From the IMG/VR virus record IMGVR_UViG_2744054675_000008, positions 1 through 10,577 of that record: 10,577 bases of DNA. One strand, given 5' to 3'. How positions within the stretch are numbered: position 1 is the stretch's first letter; every line of letters begins with the position of its first letter. The translations under genes and the position numbers were made by a program. This DNA is from a virus (lineage: Duplodnaviria; Heunggongvirae; Uroviricota; Caudoviricetes). The notes beneath the pieces were generated by a model that did no database searches, was not told the origin of the DNA, and saw nothing but the letters and a program-made list of their open reading frames with translations. Of this stretch, positions 1 through 5,180 are shown one piece after another.

Positions 1-195
1 TTAATAGTTCTGCTGATTTTCTTCCATCTCTGCTTCTGCTGCCAGTGATTCAATTTTATCTGCGAATATTGCTGACAGTGTTGCAAATTCAGCATCAGTG
101 ACAGCGGGAATTGGAACAAACCTGATCCCGCTGTGTGCAAGCATGTTTGCAGTTTCAAGGCATTTCCTTAAATCTGCTGGTGATGCCCTGTTCAT
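1..195 (-). CDS. Hypothetical small phage protein (64 aa), last gene of the leftward operon in this window
   Basis: Complete ORF (ATG at 195-193, TAA at 3-1). Its ATG overlaps the TGA of the upstream methyltransferase gene (ATGA overlap), suggesting translational coupling. No family recognised. Confidence 0.45.
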   Translation of the reverse strand: MNRASPADLRKCLETANMLAHSGIRFVPIPAVTDAEFATLSAIFADKIESLAAEAEMEENQQNY

Positions 196-842
196 GCTGC
201 ACGCTCCCGTCCCTGGTTGTCTGTTGGTGACAGCGGAGAATTGCTGAATGCATTTGTTAATCCGCCAATATCCAACGCGTATCCGGGGTGTAGTTGCACT
301 GCCGGGTCTTCACACTGATTACCCCAAACATCGAAGCCATGAGACGTCTGGCGGGCGAACAGTTCAATGCGAGAAACATCGCCTAACAATTGCACAAGTT
401 TTTCACGAACGATATCTGGTTTTCTTGAATGCTCAAGCCGCGGTGCGGTAAATGACTGAACGATCCCTGCATTAATGCGCGTAGGTAGTTTTCCCTTTAC
501 CGCAAACAGGCAATCTTCACTATTGGCGCGAGTCATGTGTCCCATACCCATAACCAGTTTATCTGGTTGTCGACTACCACATTTTATCCACGTGAAGCCA
601 TTCATGGTCATCAGACGGAATCCCCAGGCTTCAACAACTTTTAGTGCTTCGAGTGGTTGTGTTGGCACCCACCACATGGCCAACAGACAGTTTTCAGCGG
701 TCAAATCCCACACAGGAAGGCGGCAGATATCCAGCACACTCATAACTGGATATTTAAAACAGGCACCGCGATTACCATCTGCGGCTTTGTCCCGGTATAC
801 CCAGGGTGGATCTGCATAGATTAGTGTGTATTTCTTAGTCAT
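192..842 (-). CDS. MT-A70 family DNA N6-adenine methyltransferase (orphan, phage Dam-like)
   Basis: N-terminal MTKKYTLIYADPPWVY contains the DPPW catalytic motif near the N-terminus, as in MT-A70-type phage adenine methyltransferases; EHSRKP segment later. ATG at 842-840 overlaps the upstream ORF stop (ATGACTAA). The ORF track begins at an in-frame GTG at 854; ATG at 842 preferred. No restriction endonuclease partner in the window. Confidence 0.8.
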   Translation of the reverse strand: MTKKYTLIYADPPWVYRDKAADGNRGACFKYPVMSVLDICRLPVWDLTAENCLLAMWWVPTQPLEALKVVEAWGFRLMTMNGFTWIKCGSRQPDKLVMGMGHMTRANSEDCLFAVKGKLPTRINAGIVQSFTAPRLEHSRKPDIVREKLVQLLGDVSRIELFARQTSHGFDVWGNQCEDPAVQLHPGYALDIGGLTNAFSNSPLSPTDNQGRERAA

Positions 843-1134
843 AAACCACCCCACAACATCCTATGCCGCTATAGTCGCCACGGCGAAGGCCGTTACCTTT
901 TGTGATACATTGGTCCCTGCGAACCGCGATCCTTGCACGTTCAACATCACCAGAAGCAACATCCATACACTGAAGCCAAAGGTGAGCGGCAATGCGGAAT
1001 TGCCCTTTTTTCTCTCTTTCAATCGCGCGTTTTTCGATCTCTATCGCCGCAGGAGTAACGGCGACAATCTTTGACGGACTGCGCATTGAAACCTTATTCA
1101 TGTGATATTTTTCAAGTCGGCTTAACTTTCTCAC
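835..1134 (-). CDS. Hypothetical phage protein (83-99 aa depending on start)
   Basis: ORF whose stop overlaps the methyltransferase start. Start uncertain: GTG at 1134 preceded by GAGAGGG, or ATG at 1086 preceded by AAGG. No family recognised. Confidence 0.4.
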   Translation of the reverse strand: MRKLSRLEKYHMNKVSMRSPSKIVAVTPAAIEIEKRAIEREKKGQFRIAAHLWLQCMDVASGDVERARIAVRRDQCITKGNGLRRGDYSGIGCCGVVYD

Positions 1135-1243
1135 TTAATCCAACCCTCTCTGAAAATTAATGCCAGCAGATAAAGCCATGCTGAAACAGAGGCCAGGAAT
1201 AAGTACCAGCCTGACCATTTGCTCCAGTGCCTTAGCAGCGCAC

Positions 1244-1492
1244 TCATGCAGCGTTGCTCACAGGACGATATACACGTTGCTGAACAGGAGGTTTTTTACC
1301 CTGGAACTCTGCCGGGCTTGCTGCCTGACGTTCATCAAGCCAACGCTCAACTTCATCACGGTTCCATGCGCAGCGTTTGTCAGTGATATACCAGCGTTTA
1401 GGAAATTCCCCTGCGCGCTCCATACGGTCGATAGTGCTCCATGACAGTGGCACCACCGCCAGGAGTTCCTTCTTACCTAATGCACCTTTCAT
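1244..1492 (-). CDS. AlpA/Xis-family helix-turn-helix DNA-binding protein (phage transcriptional regulator or excisionase-like)
   Basis: 82 aa; segment LLAVVPLSWSTIDRMERAGEFPKRWYITDKRCAWNRDEVERWLDER matches the AlpA/excisionase-type winged-HTH pattern (S-x-S/T-I-x-R, FPKP-like, W-x-x-x-E-V-x-x-W). Shine-Dalgarno AGAGAGG upstream of the ATG. Confidence 0.65.
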   Translation of the reverse strand: MKGALGKKELLAVVPLSWSTIDRMERAGEFPKRWYITDKRCAWNRDEVERWLDERQAASPAEFQGKKPPVQQRVYRPVSNAA

Positions 1493-1514
1493 AAATACCT
1501 CTCTTGGTTGCAGT

Positions 1515-1533
1515 GCGGCGCGCGTGGCGCCGC
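1515..1533. other. GC-rich perfect hairpin (7-bp stem GCGGCGC / GCGCCGC, 5-nt loop) between the annealing-protein gene and the AlpA-like gene; no U-tract on either strand
   Basis: Inverted repeat read directly: GCGGCGC gcgtg GCGCCGC at 1515-1533. Confidence 0.5.
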
Positions 1534-1541
1534 GGTGGTGG

Positions 1542-2423
1542 TTACATAGATGTTTCGTTTAATTCTTCCCGACGAACGCTGTAAACGTCGGTGGCTTTTG
1601 CCAGCAGTTCTTCATCATCTGAAAGTTTTTGTGCAATGTATTTGTAAGCCTTATCCAGTTCGGAGACAGTGCTGTAATTCATCGCTGCGCTGGTAAAGGC
1701 CATCAGCATTTCTTCTGGATCACGGCTATCCGCTTTACGCGTTTGCTCATCAGGCTTTTTCGCTGGTTTAGCGTTGATCAGACTGTTCATTCCCGCAGCA
1801 GTGGTCGTTTGCGGAGTAATGTCTCGCTCAACGCGCGGTGCCGTTTCCTGTAATTCGTCAGGGGTGTAAACACCGAGAAGTACATCAGGAGCGTGCAGGC
1901 GAGCCCATCGTTTCGTGCAAAGATAGGCAAGCTGCTGGCGCGGATCCTGTTCCCACAATGGAGAGTTACGCACTCCGGCTTGCGCCATACTGATGGTAAG
2001 CTCACGGGGTTCTGCTTCTCCTTTAAGAACTGCTGACACAGTTACCGTCAGATTCGGTGATTTATCTGTTTTGCCGTTAACATTCGACCAGTCACCGCTC
2101 CAGCGATAATTCAGGCGTGTCGCTAGCAGGCTGGAAGAGGATACGACCGCGTTTACCAACTGTGCTTCGTAGCCTAACGTTCCGTTTACCACATGCGTTT
2201 TCTGCGCCACGGCGAAAGGATTCATTCCCCACTGTGCCGCCTGCATGGTCACCGCCAGACAATCGGCAGGTTTGCCTTCAAGATGTTTCGGTACAGTCGC
2301 TTTGCTTTGTGACATCAACTCCGCGAAACGCACCAGTTGATTCATGCCCTCCGGGCTGAAGATTGCCGCAGCAGTACCTACAGTTGCGCCTGGTTGTGAT
2401 GTGATTGCGATATCATTGCTCAT
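1542..2423 (-). CDS. Phage single-strand annealing protein, Red-beta (Bet) family recombinase
   Basis: 293 aa. C-terminal region matches lambda Bet as I recall it (…ARL…Y…DE…ERDITP motif) and an N-terminal segment resembles the Bet core. ATGA overlap with the upstream exonuclease gene, AGGA Shine-Dalgarno. Family assignment from memory, not from a search. Confidence 0.7.
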   Translation of the reverse strand: MSNDIAITSQPGATVGTAAAIFSPEGMNQLVRFAELMSQSKATVPKHLEGKPADCLAVTMQAAQWGMNPFAVAQKTHVVNGTLGYEAQLVNAVVSSSSLLATRLNYRWSGDWSNVNGKTDKSPNLTVTVSAVLKGEAEPRELTISMAQAGVRNSPLWEQDPRQQLAYLCTKRWARLHAPDVLLGVYTPDELQETAPRVERDITPQTTTAAGMNSLINAKPAKKPDEQTRKADSRDPEEMLMAFTSAAMNYSTVSELDKAYKYIAQKLSDDEELLAKATDVYSVRREELNETSM

Positions 2424-3241
2424 ACGTACATATCCTGTTTACGTGCCCAGTCAGGGCGTTTAATAATTTCCACTCCGCCCCACTCATCGTTGATGCGGCA
2501 TTCGTGATAGGTATTCAGATCCCGGCGGAACAGAGCGTGCCCGGCATCGACATCCGGCGCATCCAGCTCGAACACGCGTACCGGATACCGACCACAATCA
2601 ATGCTTTCGCTCACGGCAAGAAAGAAAAAACCATGCGGCTGACCAGTAACCTTCATTGCGCCTTCGCGGTACATTGCGTCCTGCACGTGGTAGCGGAATT
2701 CCTCGATGTGGCGTGCAAAACGGTCCATATCTGCAACCTTTTTCACGTCGACGATCACGTTGTGCTCGTTCAGCCATTTGTCTGGACGAATGCGGCACAA
2801 CTCACCAGTCTCTTCATCGTTCCAGTACATTGATGCTTCGCAGTAACCAGGTGCTTCCAGCATCCAGCGTGCAGCCGGGTGAGCCATTGCGCTATCACGC
2901 ATCAGCTCCAGTTTTCGCCACTGCTCGACATCAAGTACCGTAATACCCATATCCGCCACATCACGAAGAAATGCTTCTTCGTCAGCTTTACCTTGTTTTG
3001 TCCGACGATCGAATTTCGGTGAAACAATGAAGCGTTTGTCGAACTCTCCAGGCTCCAGAAGCAGACAGTGCAATGCGGTTCCCATATCCAGTGCAGACTT
3101 TTTCTCTTCGTCTTCTGGTGCTGCCTGAACCCATTTAAGAAGCGCCGGATTCTTGGCAACCATGTCCAGTTGCGACTTACTCACGCCGTCACCGGCGTGG
3201 TAGTCTTCGTTGCTGATGTCGAAATAAATTCCCGGTTTCAT
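2420..3241 (-). CDS. RecB-family PD-(D/E)XK exonuclease (RecE C-terminal-domain-like phage exonuclease)
   Basis: 273 aa. Motifs in order: RPD (Asp), IVDVKKV (D-x-K) and QDAMY (QxxxY) characteristic of RecB-like nucleases. Sits immediately upstream of and overlaps the annealing-protein gene, the classic exo/annealase pair. GAGGGA Shine-Dalgarno. Confidence 0.7.
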   Translation of the reverse strand: MKPGIYFDISNEDYHAGDGVSKSQLDMVAKNPALLKWVQAAPEDEEKKSALDMGTALHCLLLEPGEFDKRFIVSPKFDRRTKQGKADEEAFLRDVADMGITVLDVEQWRKLELMRDSAMAHPAARWMLEAPGYCEASMYWNDEETGELCRIRPDKWLNEHNVIVDVKKVADMDRFARHIEEFRYHVQDAMYREGAMKVTGQPHGFFFLAVSESIDCGRYPVRVFELDAPDVDAGHALFRRDLNTYHECRINDEWGGVEIIKRPDWARKQDMYV

Positions 3242-3537
3242 GCCGCGTCCCTCTGTCCATCAAGCTGATCCGCCAGATCCCAGCGGGCGATAATTGCCAT
3301 TGCCTCTCGCCGATAGGCATCCATCAGTTCTTCGAACTCAGGGCTGTCTTTAGCAGCCTCCAGTACTTCCTGACGAACGCCTTTGCCTGTTACAACGTCG
3401 AAAGTTGAGGACAGTTGATGAAGTCGGATGCTCTCAATCAGTTCAACTTGTCGGTCATATAGCTGTTCTGACAGGCGGTAGTCCTTGTCGAATGCCAGCA
3501 TGATTTTTTGAAGATTTTTCTGCTGATTAACGTTCAT
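3238..3537 (-). CDS. Hypothetical phage protein (99 aa from the ATG at 3537), upstream of the exonuclease gene
   Basis: In-frame ATGs at 3552 and 3537; the one at 3537 is preceded by GGGAGGG at ideal spacing. Stop overlaps the exonuclease start (ATGA). No family recognised; position is where Gam/Kil-type accessory genes sit in lambdoid phages. Confidence 0.5.
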   Translation of the reverse strand: MNVNQQKNLQKIMLAFDKDYRLSEQLYDRQVELIESIRLHQLSSTFDVVTGKGVRQEVLEAAKDSPEFEELMDAYRREAMAIIARWDLADQLDGQRDAA

Positions 3538-3539
3538 TA

Positions 3540-3692
3540 TCAGCCCTCCCATATCTCGTTATCGTTGGCCACATCGCGAGCTTCTTTGCTGACGAAAGCC
3601 CACTTAATGCCTTCCTGTAAGGTGCGGAACTTCCAGCTCATGAATCCGCATGCAGTAACGCAGTACCAACCGTTGATGATTTTCCACTGCAT
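3540..3692 (-). CDS. Small ORF (50 aa, MQWKIINGWYCVTACGFMSWKFRTLQEGIKWAFVSKEARDVANDNEIWEG), first gene downstream of the predicted PL; not in the supplied ORF track
   Basis: ATG at 3692-3690 preceded by GAGGT with 8-nt spacing; stop TGA at 3542-3540 overlaps the start region of the next gene. Translation verified codon by codon. Trp/Cys rich, not Arg rich. Confidence 0.5.
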   Translation of the reverse strand: MQWKIINGWYCVTACGFMSWKFRTLQEGIKWAFVSKEARDVANDNEIWEG

Positions 3693-3710
3693 AACTTGTT
3701 ACCTCGGTCT

Positions 3711-3727
3711 GTTACCGTTTAGGTAAT
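3711..3727. promoter_or_regulatory. Operator site OL-a (GTTACC gttta GGTAAT), overlapping -10/+1 of predicted PL
   Basis: 17-bp inverted repeat of the RTTACC-N5-GGTAAY family, seen 7 times in three intergenic clusters. Confidence 0.6.
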
Positions 3728-3754
3728 AATTATGCGTATTTGGTTTGATGTCAA
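3726..3754 (-). promoter_or_regulatory. Predicted leftward early promoter (PL-like): -35 TTGACA, 17-bp spacer, -10 AATTAT
   Basis: Consensus -35 hexamer read on minus strand (plus 3754-3749) and a -10 with the conserved A and T positions (plus 3731-3726); flanked by two operators. Confidence 0.5.
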
Positions 3755-3772
3755 TAGATATGAGTTAAAAAA

Positions 3773-3789
3773 ATTACCCATTAGGTAAT
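3773..3789. promoter_or_regulatory. Operator site OL-b (ATTACC catta GGTAAT), perfect palindrome upstream of the PL -35
   Basis: Perfect 6-bp inverted arms with 5-bp spacer; centre is 62 bp from the OL-a centre. Confidence 0.6.
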
Positions 3790-3795
3790 AGTATA

Positions 3796-3826
3796 GGCAA
3801 TAAAAAAGCCGCCAGAAGGCGGCTTA
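3796..3826 (-). terminator. Rho-independent terminator of the repressor gene
   Basis: On the minus strand: stem AAGCCGCC / GGCGGCUU with UUCU loop followed by UUUUUUAUU; the repressor stop codon lies in the stem. Confidence 0.7.
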
Positions 3827-4429
3827 CTTACTGAAAAGTATTATTTTATTGTTTGTTTTTTCGTTCTGGTTGATGACAAATTCACTGTAACTTTCGATCT
3901 TTGCTTTCTCGGTTTCAGGTAACAATGCGTAGCGCGAGCGGTCATAGTTGATAGTTGCAGGGTCGTGCGGGTGAATCAGTAGTTCATATCCGTGACGCCC
4001 GAATGCAGATGCAACATTCTCCAGGGTGGAAATGGAAACGCTGACCTCATTGTTTAACAGGCGGCTGATTGTCACCTGGGCGACGCCGGATGCGCGGTGA
4101 AGTTTTCCCTGTGTTGAAAGGTCGCGGCTTTCGCTCATCCAGCGTTCCAGGTTGTGAGCCGCCAGCTGACCAATGTCGCTTGGGCCGACAGGCTGAAAAC
4201 CTTCCTGAGAAAGCGAGCGATCGATATCAAGCCAGTTACGGGGTTTATTGGCGGCAGCTTCAATTTTTCGCGCAACCTGGTCGCCGATAACCTTCTTGCC
4301 AAGAGCCCAGCGGTTTACCAGATTTGCCTGAGTTCCAAGTTTTTCAGCCATCCGCGTCTGAACACCATTGAATTCACGGTCGATCAAGTCGTTGAGATTT
4401 TGCCTGCGGACGTCCTGGATACTTTTCAT
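3824..4429 (-). CDS. Prophage repressor (CI-functional analogue) with two HTH_XRE-like domains and no LexA-like peptidase domain
   Basis: 201 aa. N-terminal segment GVQTRMAEKLGTQANLVNRWALGKKVIGDQVARKIE and C-terminal segment ASGVAQVTISRLLNNEVSVSISTLENVASAFG both fit the XRE-type HTH pattern. No GDSM-type Ser/Lys autocleavage motifs. Divergent from the Cro-like gene, flanked by operator clusters and followed by a terminator. No obvious Shine-Dalgarno. Confidence 0.7.
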   Translation of the reverse strand: MKSIQDVRRQNLNDLIDREFNGVQTRMAEKLGTQANLVNRWALGKKVIGDQVARKIEAAANKPRNWLDIDRSLSQEGFQPVGPSDIGQLAAHNLERWMSESRDLSTQGKLHRASGVAQVTISRLLNNEVSVSISTLENVASAFGRHGYELLIHPHDPATINYDRSRYALLPETEKAKIESYSEFVINQNEKTNNKIILFSK

Positions 4430-4483
4430 TTTCTGGAAAATCGCCTCATATATGAATCAGTAGATGATTCAATTTAAAGCAAT

Positions 4484-4500
4484 ATTACCCAATAGGTAAA
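4484..4500. promoter_or_regulatory. Operator site OR-1 (ATTACC caata GGTAAA)
   Basis: Member of the 17-bp inverted-repeat family in the repressor/Cro intergenic region. Confidence 0.55.
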
Positions 4501-4517
4501 TGCACCCCATAGGTAAC
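4501..4517. promoter_or_regulatory. Operator site OR-2, degenerate (tgcACC ccata GGTAAC), abutting OR-1
   Basis: One perfect half-site (GGTAAC) and a partial one; centre 17 bp from the OR-1 centre. Confidence 0.4.
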
Positions 4518-4522
4518 TATCC

Positions 4523-4558
4523 TTGATTTTTGTTACCTTATGGGTGAATATTTATTAT
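4523..4558 (+). promoter_or_regulatory. Predicted rightward early promoter (PR-like) for the Cro-like gene; exact hexamers ambiguous
   Basis: Candidates: -35 TTGTTA (4530-4535) with -10 TATTAT (4553-4558) at 17-bp spacing, or -35 TTGATT (4523-4528) with -10 GAATAT. Both overlap operator OR-3. Confidence 0.45.
4532..4548. promoter_or_regulatory. Operator site OR-3 (GTTACC ttatg GGTGAA), overlapping PR
   Basis: Perfect left half-site, partial right half-site; mirror image of OR-2. Confidence 0.5.
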
Positions 4559-4583
4559 CTGAAATAAATATCAGGCAATAGCT

Positions 4584-4814
4584 ATGAGCGATAACGGACA
4601 TTTCGATTTCAAAAAGCACTGGCTTGCACTTACTCCGGATGAGCGTGAAGCCTTCGCACAGGAAGCCGGAACGACGAGTCATTATATCCAGACTCACTTA
4701 ACAGGTAAGCGCAAAATGCCAGGTAAAGTATTGATGAATGGGCTTTTTAAAGCCTGTAAAACAAGACAATGGCTGCGCTCAAAAGCAGAACTGGCATACT
4801 TCTTCTACTCATGA
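4584..4814 (+). CDS. Cro-like small HTH regulator (76 aa), divergent from the repressor gene
   Basis: Position (first gene of the rightward operon) and a central HTH-like segment FAQEAGTTSHYIQTHLTGKRKMPGKVL. Family not identified beyond Cro/YdaS-like resemblance. Confidence 0.55.
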   Translation: MSDNGHFDFKKHWLALTPDEREAFAQEAGTTSHYIQTHLTGKRKMPGKVLMNGLFKACKTRQWLRSKAELAYFFYS

Positions 4815-4836
4815 TATCCAGCTACAACCCTCTGTA

Positions 4837-4860
4837 GACCGCCACCCGGCGGTCTTTTCA
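4837..4860 (+). terminator. Rho-independent terminator just downstream of the Cro-like gene (tR1-like position)
   Basis: Stem GACCGCC / GGCGGTC (7 bp, perfect) with ACCC loop followed by TTTTCATAT; preceded by a second small stem-loop CTACA accctc TGTAG (4822-4837). Confidence 0.7.
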
Positions 4861-4963
4861 TATCTATTCGTACCTCAAAGGTAATAAAAAACCAAATGTG
4901 GTTGATCTTTTTTTTGTGTCAGCACAAAATGACCGTAATCCCAATACCAATAACAGGGCTTAC

Positions 4964-5165
4964 CATGGAAATCATTACACGTATTGATGCCGCAAAGCGC
5001 GGACTTAAACGCTACTACACCGGAAAAACATGTAAGCACGGACATGACAGTGAACGCTGGGTTTACAACGGACACTGTGTTGAGTGCACCATGGAATCAA
5101 ACCGTCGTATCAGGGCAGAGATTAAGCAGATCATGATTAATTCCTCCCCACAACATTCAAGCTGA
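4964..5165 (+). CDS. Small zinc-ribbon-like protein (66 aa) at the cII position; function unknown
   Basis: ATG at 4964 preceded by AGGG at 6-nt spacing (the ORF track's longer 4896 start lacks a Shine-Dalgarno). Sequence TGKTCKHGHDSERWVYNGHCVECT carries C-x2-H-x-H and H-C-x2-C, suggestive of metal binding. Confidence 0.5.
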
Positions 5166-5180
5166 TAGCGGAGATTAATC

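Follow-up and report, generated by a model that had tools for sequence, protein, structure and literature searches.

Small proteins encoded ahead of the recombination genes are found in the leftward early operons of lambda and P22, where they include CIII, Kil and Arf (47–62 residues). CIII acts on FtsH, Kil on FtsZ and Arf together with Erf. Lambda Kil (47 residues) and P22 Kil are early proteins of the PL operon, and their genes lie directly before, and overlap, gam or the recombination genes (gam-bet-exo in lambda); lambda CIII and P22 C3 (52–54 residues) are encoded in the equivalent operon, just before kil and the recombination genes, and the gene for P22 Arf (47 residues), an Erf cofactor, lies immediately upstream of the recombination genes and overlaps them. 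In the RecET prophage Rac, YdaF (DUF1391, 51 residues) is likewise a protein of about 50 residues, encoded by the second gene of the repressor-proximal leftward operon, close to where the operon starts. Here, we describe a 50-residue early protein encoded at 3540..3692 on the minus strand (stop codon included) of a 10,577-nucleotide stretch of viral DNA (IMG/VR record IMGVR_UViG_2744054675_000008, positions 1 to 10,577; the whole stretch is referred to as the window), which is the immunity region of a Uetakevirus, the epsilon15-like podoviruses. Judged by its conservation, the open reading frame (ORF) is a real gene whose protein product is under strong purifying selection; on the predicted promoter and operators in front of it, it heads the repressor-controlled leftward operon of a phiV10/ZX5-type Uetakevirus as its immediate-early first cistron.

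The length of the small ORF, whose product is MQWKIINGWYCVTACGFMSWKFRTLQEGIKWAFVSKEARDVANDNEIWEG, is unremarkable, as 29 ORFs of at least 30 codons occur within 2.5 kb here, and it is on account of its conservation that we regard it as a genuine gene. A sequence-only reading of the window, which had proposed the ORF, named loss of the reading frame among related prophages as evidence that would speak against it; the frame is open in all 17 related loci, and in each of them a Shine-Dalgarno-like purine run and an operator palindrome lie upstream of the ATG. Pairwise ratios of nonsynonymous to synonymous substitution (dN/dS, Nei-Gojobori) are 0.05–0.33, with synonymous sites near saturation (proportion of synonymous differences, pS, 0.56–0.95), and in the first 19 codons of an 11-phage codon alignment the variable sites at codon positions 1, 2 and 3 number three, none and seven, respectively. 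The homology search against small phage proteins, which the same reading had suggested as a check, gave a full-length match to PHROG 898 (E = 1.9e-38, residues 1–50 on profile positions 1–50 of 50) and none to Kil, CIII, Arf or YdaF.

The translation signals are present as the sequence-only reading had described them: a GAGGT Shine-Dalgarno sequence (3701..3705, minus strand) is followed by an 8-nucleotide spacer (3700-3693) and the ATG (3692-3690). All 11 close relatives have GAGGT, and distant ones have GGAG, GAGGG or AAGAG. At the other end, the stop codon (TGA, 3542-3540) was said to overlap the start region of the next gene; the two do adjoin, but here they are 2 nucleotides apart (next ATG, 3537-3535), whereas in most relatives they overlap, and across all loci the junction reads ATGA or GTGA or is a few bases wide. 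The ribosome-binding site of the next gene, GGGAGGG (3550-3544), is contained in the final three codons of the small ORF, and across the family the C-terminal codons (…WEG, …IWG, …GVSK) encode this G-rich element, which accounts for one of the five tryptophans of the protein.

Upstream, the predicted leftward early promoter PL (3726..3754, minus strand) consists of a -35 hexamer TTGACA (3754-3749), a 17-nucleotide spacer and a -10 hexamer AATTAT (3731-3726). It is the best sigma-70-like site of the whole window (10 of 12 matches), and the pattern TTGAC(A/T)-N17-AATTAT is kept in six of the relatives. Transcription is predicted to start near 3719, about 27 nucleotides 5' of the ATG, in keeping with the distance of about 28 nucleotides originally proposed. 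Two palindromes bracket the promoter, namely OL1 (TTACCGTTTAGGTAA, 3712..3726), which shares base 3726 with the -10 hexamer and covers the predicted transcription start, and OL2 (TTACCCATTAGGTAA, 3774..3788), which is placed upstream of the -35 hexamer, at a distance of 62 bp from OL1. The underlying operator pattern, TTACCnnnnnGGTAA, has 17 strand-matches in the window, compared with 1.06 expected by chance; three further operator palindromes are located in the divergent promoter region at 4485-4547, and the epsilon15 record annotates the equivalent palindromes as repressor binding sites. The promoter also appears to be insulated from the repressor transcript by the intrinsic terminator of the repressor gene (3806..3825, minus strand), which has an 8-bp stem with six GC pairs followed by a T run and is annotated in phiV10. 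Since PL is both bracketed by predicted operators and insulated in this way, the small ORF should stay off in the lysogen and be the first to be expressed on derepression, which makes the superinfection-exclusion factor entertained by the sequence-only reading unlikely. In ZX5, overexpression of the repressor shuts off lytic transcription, in a study that did not address the small gene (PMC9782041). No intrinsic terminator was found in the leftward operon within the window, so that no antiterminator is called for, and no N-like antiterminator was recognised in this part of the operon.

The ORF had been described as unannotated, which does not hold: its product is 100% identical to phiV10 gp39 (PhiV10p39, YP_512294.1) and to ZX5 QTH80030.1 and 79% identical to epsilon15 gp37 (NP_848245.1), and these are the same gene, with the same length and the same position after the repressor gene, operators and PL. 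Over the 700 bases around the small ORF, the window shares 99.1% identity with Escherichia phage vB_EcoP_ZX5 and 98.3% with phiV10. The protein is also annotated in TL-2011b, in O157 typing phages and in RefSeq E. coli genomes, and 558 of 5,426 complete E. coli genomes carry the locus, the matched features being labelled there as hypothetical proteins. Two protein searches returned about 64 clusters, all from Enterobacterales (Escherichia, Salmonella, Klebsiella, Enterobacter, Raoultella, Kluyvera, Scandinavium, Hafnia and Serratia) and 45–54 residues long if correctly called, none of which has a Pfam domain or a name. An exhaustive HMMER search over 1.84 billion representatives gave 19 matches, all of them family members bar P0030, a repetitive 1,929-residue protein that we take to be a spurious match. 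PHROG 898 carries no assigned function and all records label the protein hypothetical; the gene is thus already known as an annotated hypothetical of an orphan family, and as a sequence feature it adds nothing new. Some records deal with it differently: that of Enterobacter phage Tyrion (NC_031077; locus L004, 2405-2617) annotates an antisense ORF, BI095_gp39, and omits the conserved 49-residue gene, VB_ST_E15 and several other records likewise omit the small gene, and the over-long gene calls P0043, P0048, P0058, P0061 and P0063 translate the operator as 'YYQIGN'.

Every phage record, contig and genome locus that was inspected has the small ORF after the Cro-like gene, the repressor gene and the operators, in that order, which bears out its placement as the first gene of the leftward early operon. 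What follows it varies: in the window the next gene encodes a PHROG 856 protein, in the Serratia loci and phiv142-3 a 348-residue protein followed by the PHROG 856 gene, in locus L016 a bona fide Gam (PF06064, 46.8 bits) and in locus L015 directly a 550-residue RecE-like protein. The inserted protein of 344–348 residues (L010 2659-3693 in phiv142-3; L012 5150-6196 in Serratia), whose gene is coupled to the small-ORF stop, has no Pfam match above threshold. The small ORF is retained despite a different exonuclease and RecT type in epsilon15 and a different replication module in locus L024, and it is present in every one of the 35 enterobacterial phage records with the Cro-like neighbour; this co-occurrence and retention make it a core gene of the immunity/early-left module, as opposed to an optional accessory one. 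Its product is 79–85% identical in Salmonella, Enterobacter and Klebsiella phages, which is in the range of RecE and AlpA, whereas the most divergent repressors (those of epsilon15 and a Klebsiella phage) are 40–43% identical, far below the small protein.

The product is predicted to be a soluble mini-domain of three strands and a helix. AlphaFold2, run with an alignment of 30 sequences that includes the Serratia and Hafnia branch, places strands at residues 2–6, 9–14 and 18–22 and a helix at 25–48, with a mean predicted local distance difference test score (pLDDT) of 73; a run with 15 close sequences gave an all-helical model with a pLDDT of 54 and was unusable. G8, T13 and W31 are invariant and W3, G16, S19, F22, A32 and F33 nearly so, and to our eyes these look like turn and core positions, that is, structural and not catalytic residues. 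The C-terminal tail is variable and often acidic, and the net charges of the 30 members span -4 to +4, so that the family is not consistently basic. Sequence searches of Pfam, NCBIfam and the PDB returned nothing above threshold, and Foldseek searches of the PDB and of predicted viral structures nothing significant, the scores lying at the generic level of small folds; AP2-, HicB- and dsRBD-like domains are the candidate folds of three strands plus a helix.

For the role of the gene, we propose the following model. Once the two-helix-turn-helix repressor leaves OL1 and OL2, transcription would begin about 27 nucleotides 5' of the ATG, and the strong GAGGT site would load ribosomes on the small ORF. 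With the stop and start codons 2 nucleotides apart here and overlapping in most relatives, ribosomes that finish the small ORF would pass straight to the next gene, and translation would run on into the Gam-like, RecE and RecT genes. The small protein itself would stoichiometrically bind a conserved protein partner during the first minutes that follow derepression. With a structural core, a variable charge and no catalytic-looking residues, stoichiometric binding of a macromolecule seems most plausible, and the precedent of CIII, Kil and Arf ahead of the recombination genes favours a protein-binding modulator, a reading that our analysis leaves about evenly balanced. The partner may be a host factor rather than a phage one; the N-terminal half, near-invariant across genera, favours a conserved host target, and the strict linkage to the immunity module favours a regulatory role. 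Several points weigh against the protein-binding modulator: the fold is also compatible with nucleic-acid binding (AP2, dsRBD), confidence in the model is only moderate and the earlier 15-sequence run differed, the gene travels with the immunity module when recombination or replication modules are swapped, which fits regulation or mere linkage to PL equally well, and our literature search returned no functional study of, or experiment on, the small protein.

The alternatives differ mainly in the partner they give to the protein. It could be a regulator of the lysis-lysogeny decision, either a CIII-like FtsH inhibitor that shields an unstable establishment factor or, like Coi of P1, an antagonist of the phage's own repressor that locks in lytic growth once PL has fired; such a role is unlikely, though it has the locus in its favour, as the gene adjoins the repressor gene, is under direct predicted repressor control, accompanies the repressor and Cro-like pair through the exonuclease/RecT (epsilon15, L015) and replication (L024) swaps, is as constant in phages with this immunity region as a core regulator, and occupies a position equivalent to that of cIII and c3. 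By eye, the CIII proteins even share with it an N-terminal MQ[YW].I..GW and a central L.[DE]G.K, but the homology suggested by MQYAIAGW and MQWKIINGW was rejected at an hhalign probability of 0.6%, P22 C3 is unrelated and Pfam Lambda_CIII does not match. CIII acts through a central amphipathic helix, whereas the conserved part of the small protein is predicted to be a beta-sheet plus helix. These phages are not known to have a CII-like partner, and for a repressor binder it would be unexpected that residues 1–25 are almost invariant while the repressors differ so widely. A Kil-type inhibitor of host cell division, as raised in the sequence-only reading, which would block assembly of the FtsZ ring after induction, seems improbable. 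The gene directly precedes, and is coupled to, a Gam-like gene that is followed by an exonuclease gene and an annealing-protein gene, as lambda kil precedes gam-bet-exo, its product is of similar size, and an N-terminal half that hardly changes between phages of Escherichia, Salmonella, Klebsiella and Enterobacter would suit a very conserved host target. In contrast to Kil, however, the gene is first in its operon and universal in its lineage, and its product has a different predicted fold, made of strands plus a helix; Kil genes are dispensable accessory genes. Nor is there similarity to Kil proteins: hhalign gives a probability of 0.18% for lambda Kil and nothing for P22 Kil, Pfam Lambda_Kil matches none of the 30 members even at E-values up to 10, and Rac KilR is absent from the unfiltered hmmsearch output obtained with the family profile. 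Other small early proteins fare no better. Unlike Arf, the small ORF stays in place when the exonuclease and annealing genes are exchanged (epsilon15, L015), and no similarity to P22 Arf, Abc1 or Abc2 was found by hmmsearch or hhalign (probabilities of 0.4% or less). YdaF shares by eye the spacing F-[KR]-T-x3-A-x2-W, but a comparison of the 30-sequence family with a 14-sequence DUF1391 alignment by hhalign (probability 0.55%) led us to reject it, and Rac YdaG, YdaE, KilR, RacC and RcbA show no similarity; for the classical small early proteins of lambda, P22 and Rac, all hhalign probabilities are below 1%.

The remaining readings leave the protein-binding modulator aside altogether. The small protein could be a nucleic-acid binder, with a sheet contacting DNA (like AP2 or the integrase arm-binding domain) or RNA (like a dsRBD), and serve as a cofactor in transcription or recombination directionality, for which we see little likelihood. 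The strands carry Trp, Lys and Arg residues (W3, K4, W9, W20, K21 and R23), the F-x-T-x-x-E-A sequence at the strand-helix junction is presumably comparable to that of AP2-like domains, and the structural neighbours in BFVD include the N-terminal part of HNH homing endonucleases and a DUF2188 protein; yet none of the Foldseek scores is significant, the net charge varies from -4 to +4 and distant members have A, T, Q or S in place of R23, the leftward operon holds no terminator that would call for an antiterminator, and the phage already has AlpA-type Xis and Cro-like proteins. From the segment WYCVTACGF, the sequence-only reading had further suggested a membrane or metal-binding role, which is hardly tenable. 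The CxxxC spacing and the moderately hydrophobic N-terminal half of the window copy speak for it, as do a profile match to the transmembrane segment of mucolipin-2 at chance level (E = 0.18) and sub-threshold matches to Pfam Phage_zn_bind_5, the best of which scores 17.1 bits, short of the cut-off of 27. The maximum 19-residue Kyte-Doolittle mean, however, is 0.13–1.45 in the 30 members, that is, in every case below the usual threshold of 1.6 for transmembrane segments; distant homologues carry Lys, Arg, His and Gln within the segment (...SATGKRREF and MVFKKNHQGKY... in P0039 and P0041), which AlphaFold places in a beta-hairpin. C11 is replaced in seven of the 30 members and C15 by Ser in eight, and five members are free of Cys. 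Transmembrane and zinc readings were therefore both rejected on hydropathy and Cys non-conservation. Finally, the peptide could be irrelevant, the ORF being a mere translational entry ramp or the true gene being the antisense ORF at 3508..3726 on the plus strand, and this we consider very improbable. In its support, the small-ORF stop abuts or overlaps the next start in all loci and the Tyrion record calls the opposite strand; moreover, the third codon positions of the sense and antisense frames coincide, so that third-position bias alone cannot tell the strands apart, and both strands were checked for this reason. Against it, the amino-acid sequence is under strong purifying selection and predicted to fold, the antisense ORF would run counter to PL and the promoter search yielded no candidate site for it, and one to three stops break its frame in phiv142-3 as well as in all distant loci, those of Serratia and Hafnia among them, whereas the sense frame is never broken. 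These stops refute the antisense ORF of the Tyrion annotation as the true gene. The reading that the leader, or the 5' part of the ORF, is an RNA element was rejected as well, as no Rfam family reached threshold and the fold z-score was -0.63.

The remainder of the window agrees in gene content with the annotated order of phiV10 and ZX5, whose records read leftwards from the two-helix-turn-helix repressor gene through the intergenic region, the 50-residue, 99-residue, RecE-like exonuclease, RecT and AlpA-type Xis genes to the integrase end, and rightwards through the Cro-like 76-residue gene and a terminator to the replication genes. The next cistron after the small ORF (3238..3537, minus strand) encodes the 99-residue PHROG 856 protein, hypothetical in all records, and is translationally coupled to the small ORF. 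An alignment of eight PHROG 856 sequences matches the Gam of L016 over 62 columns (hhalign probability 78%, E = 1.7e-5), and the match to lambda GamS is weak (probability 4%) and collinear, with an EF[QE]E motif in common; from these comparisons, the protein is probably a diverged nuclease inhibitor of the Gam type, which would act on RecBCD. Later cistrons of the operon encode the RecE-like exonuclease (2420..3241, minus strand) and RecT (1542..2423, minus strand). In the window and in ZX5 these are two genes with a 4-nucleotide overlap, and in phiV10 (NC_007804; L001 2282-4042) they form a single fused protein of 586 residues, which is either a true fusion or a frameshift error in the record. 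The prophage repressor, a protein of the SPC32H/epsilon15 Rep type with two helix-turn-helix domains, is called by the ORF finder at 3824..4429 on the minus strand (201 residues); it is annotated as 585 nucleotides in phiV10 and ZX5, which corresponds to a start at 4408. On the rightward side, the Cro-like gene (4584..4814) is directly followed by a strong intrinsic terminator (4836-4855, plus strand) in a tR1-like position, after which lies a weaker operator site with two mismatches (4870-4884). Six iteron-like direct repeats (5435-5587, consensus about CCCAAAAACGGGA, spaced by 18–45 bp) sit inside the DnaT-like replication initiator gene (5181..5996) and are probably the phage replication origin, placed like the lambda origin in gene O. 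Further along, a third pair of operator palindromes (6816-6830 and 6878-6892), one perfect and one with a single mismatch, occupies the gap that separates the lambda-P-like replication gene, which ends at 6778, from the DUF1064 gene (6896..7240); the two palindromes are 62 bp apart as at PL, and this arrangement suggests a third repressor-controlled promoter.

Returning to the protein-binding modulator, the candidate effector class would comprise 50-residue proteins with a predicted three-strand-plus-helix fold, universal in phages of the phiV10/epsilon15 type and carried by roughly a tenth of complete E. coli genomes. It is a tentative possibility that the small protein is the founder of a new class of immediate-early effectors, which would bind a conserved host machine, or the repressor of the phage itself, and switch it off by a mechanism that has no relation to those of Kil, CIII, Arf and Gam. 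The value of the finding lies in a well-defined target, a protein that is predicted to be the first made on derepression, is under purifying selection and has no relative of known function. Its gene is kept in every known member of a genus that is used to detect E. coli O157 and in Salmonella work, and naming its partner would fill a gap in our understanding of how lytic growth starts in N-less, antirepressor-induced phages.

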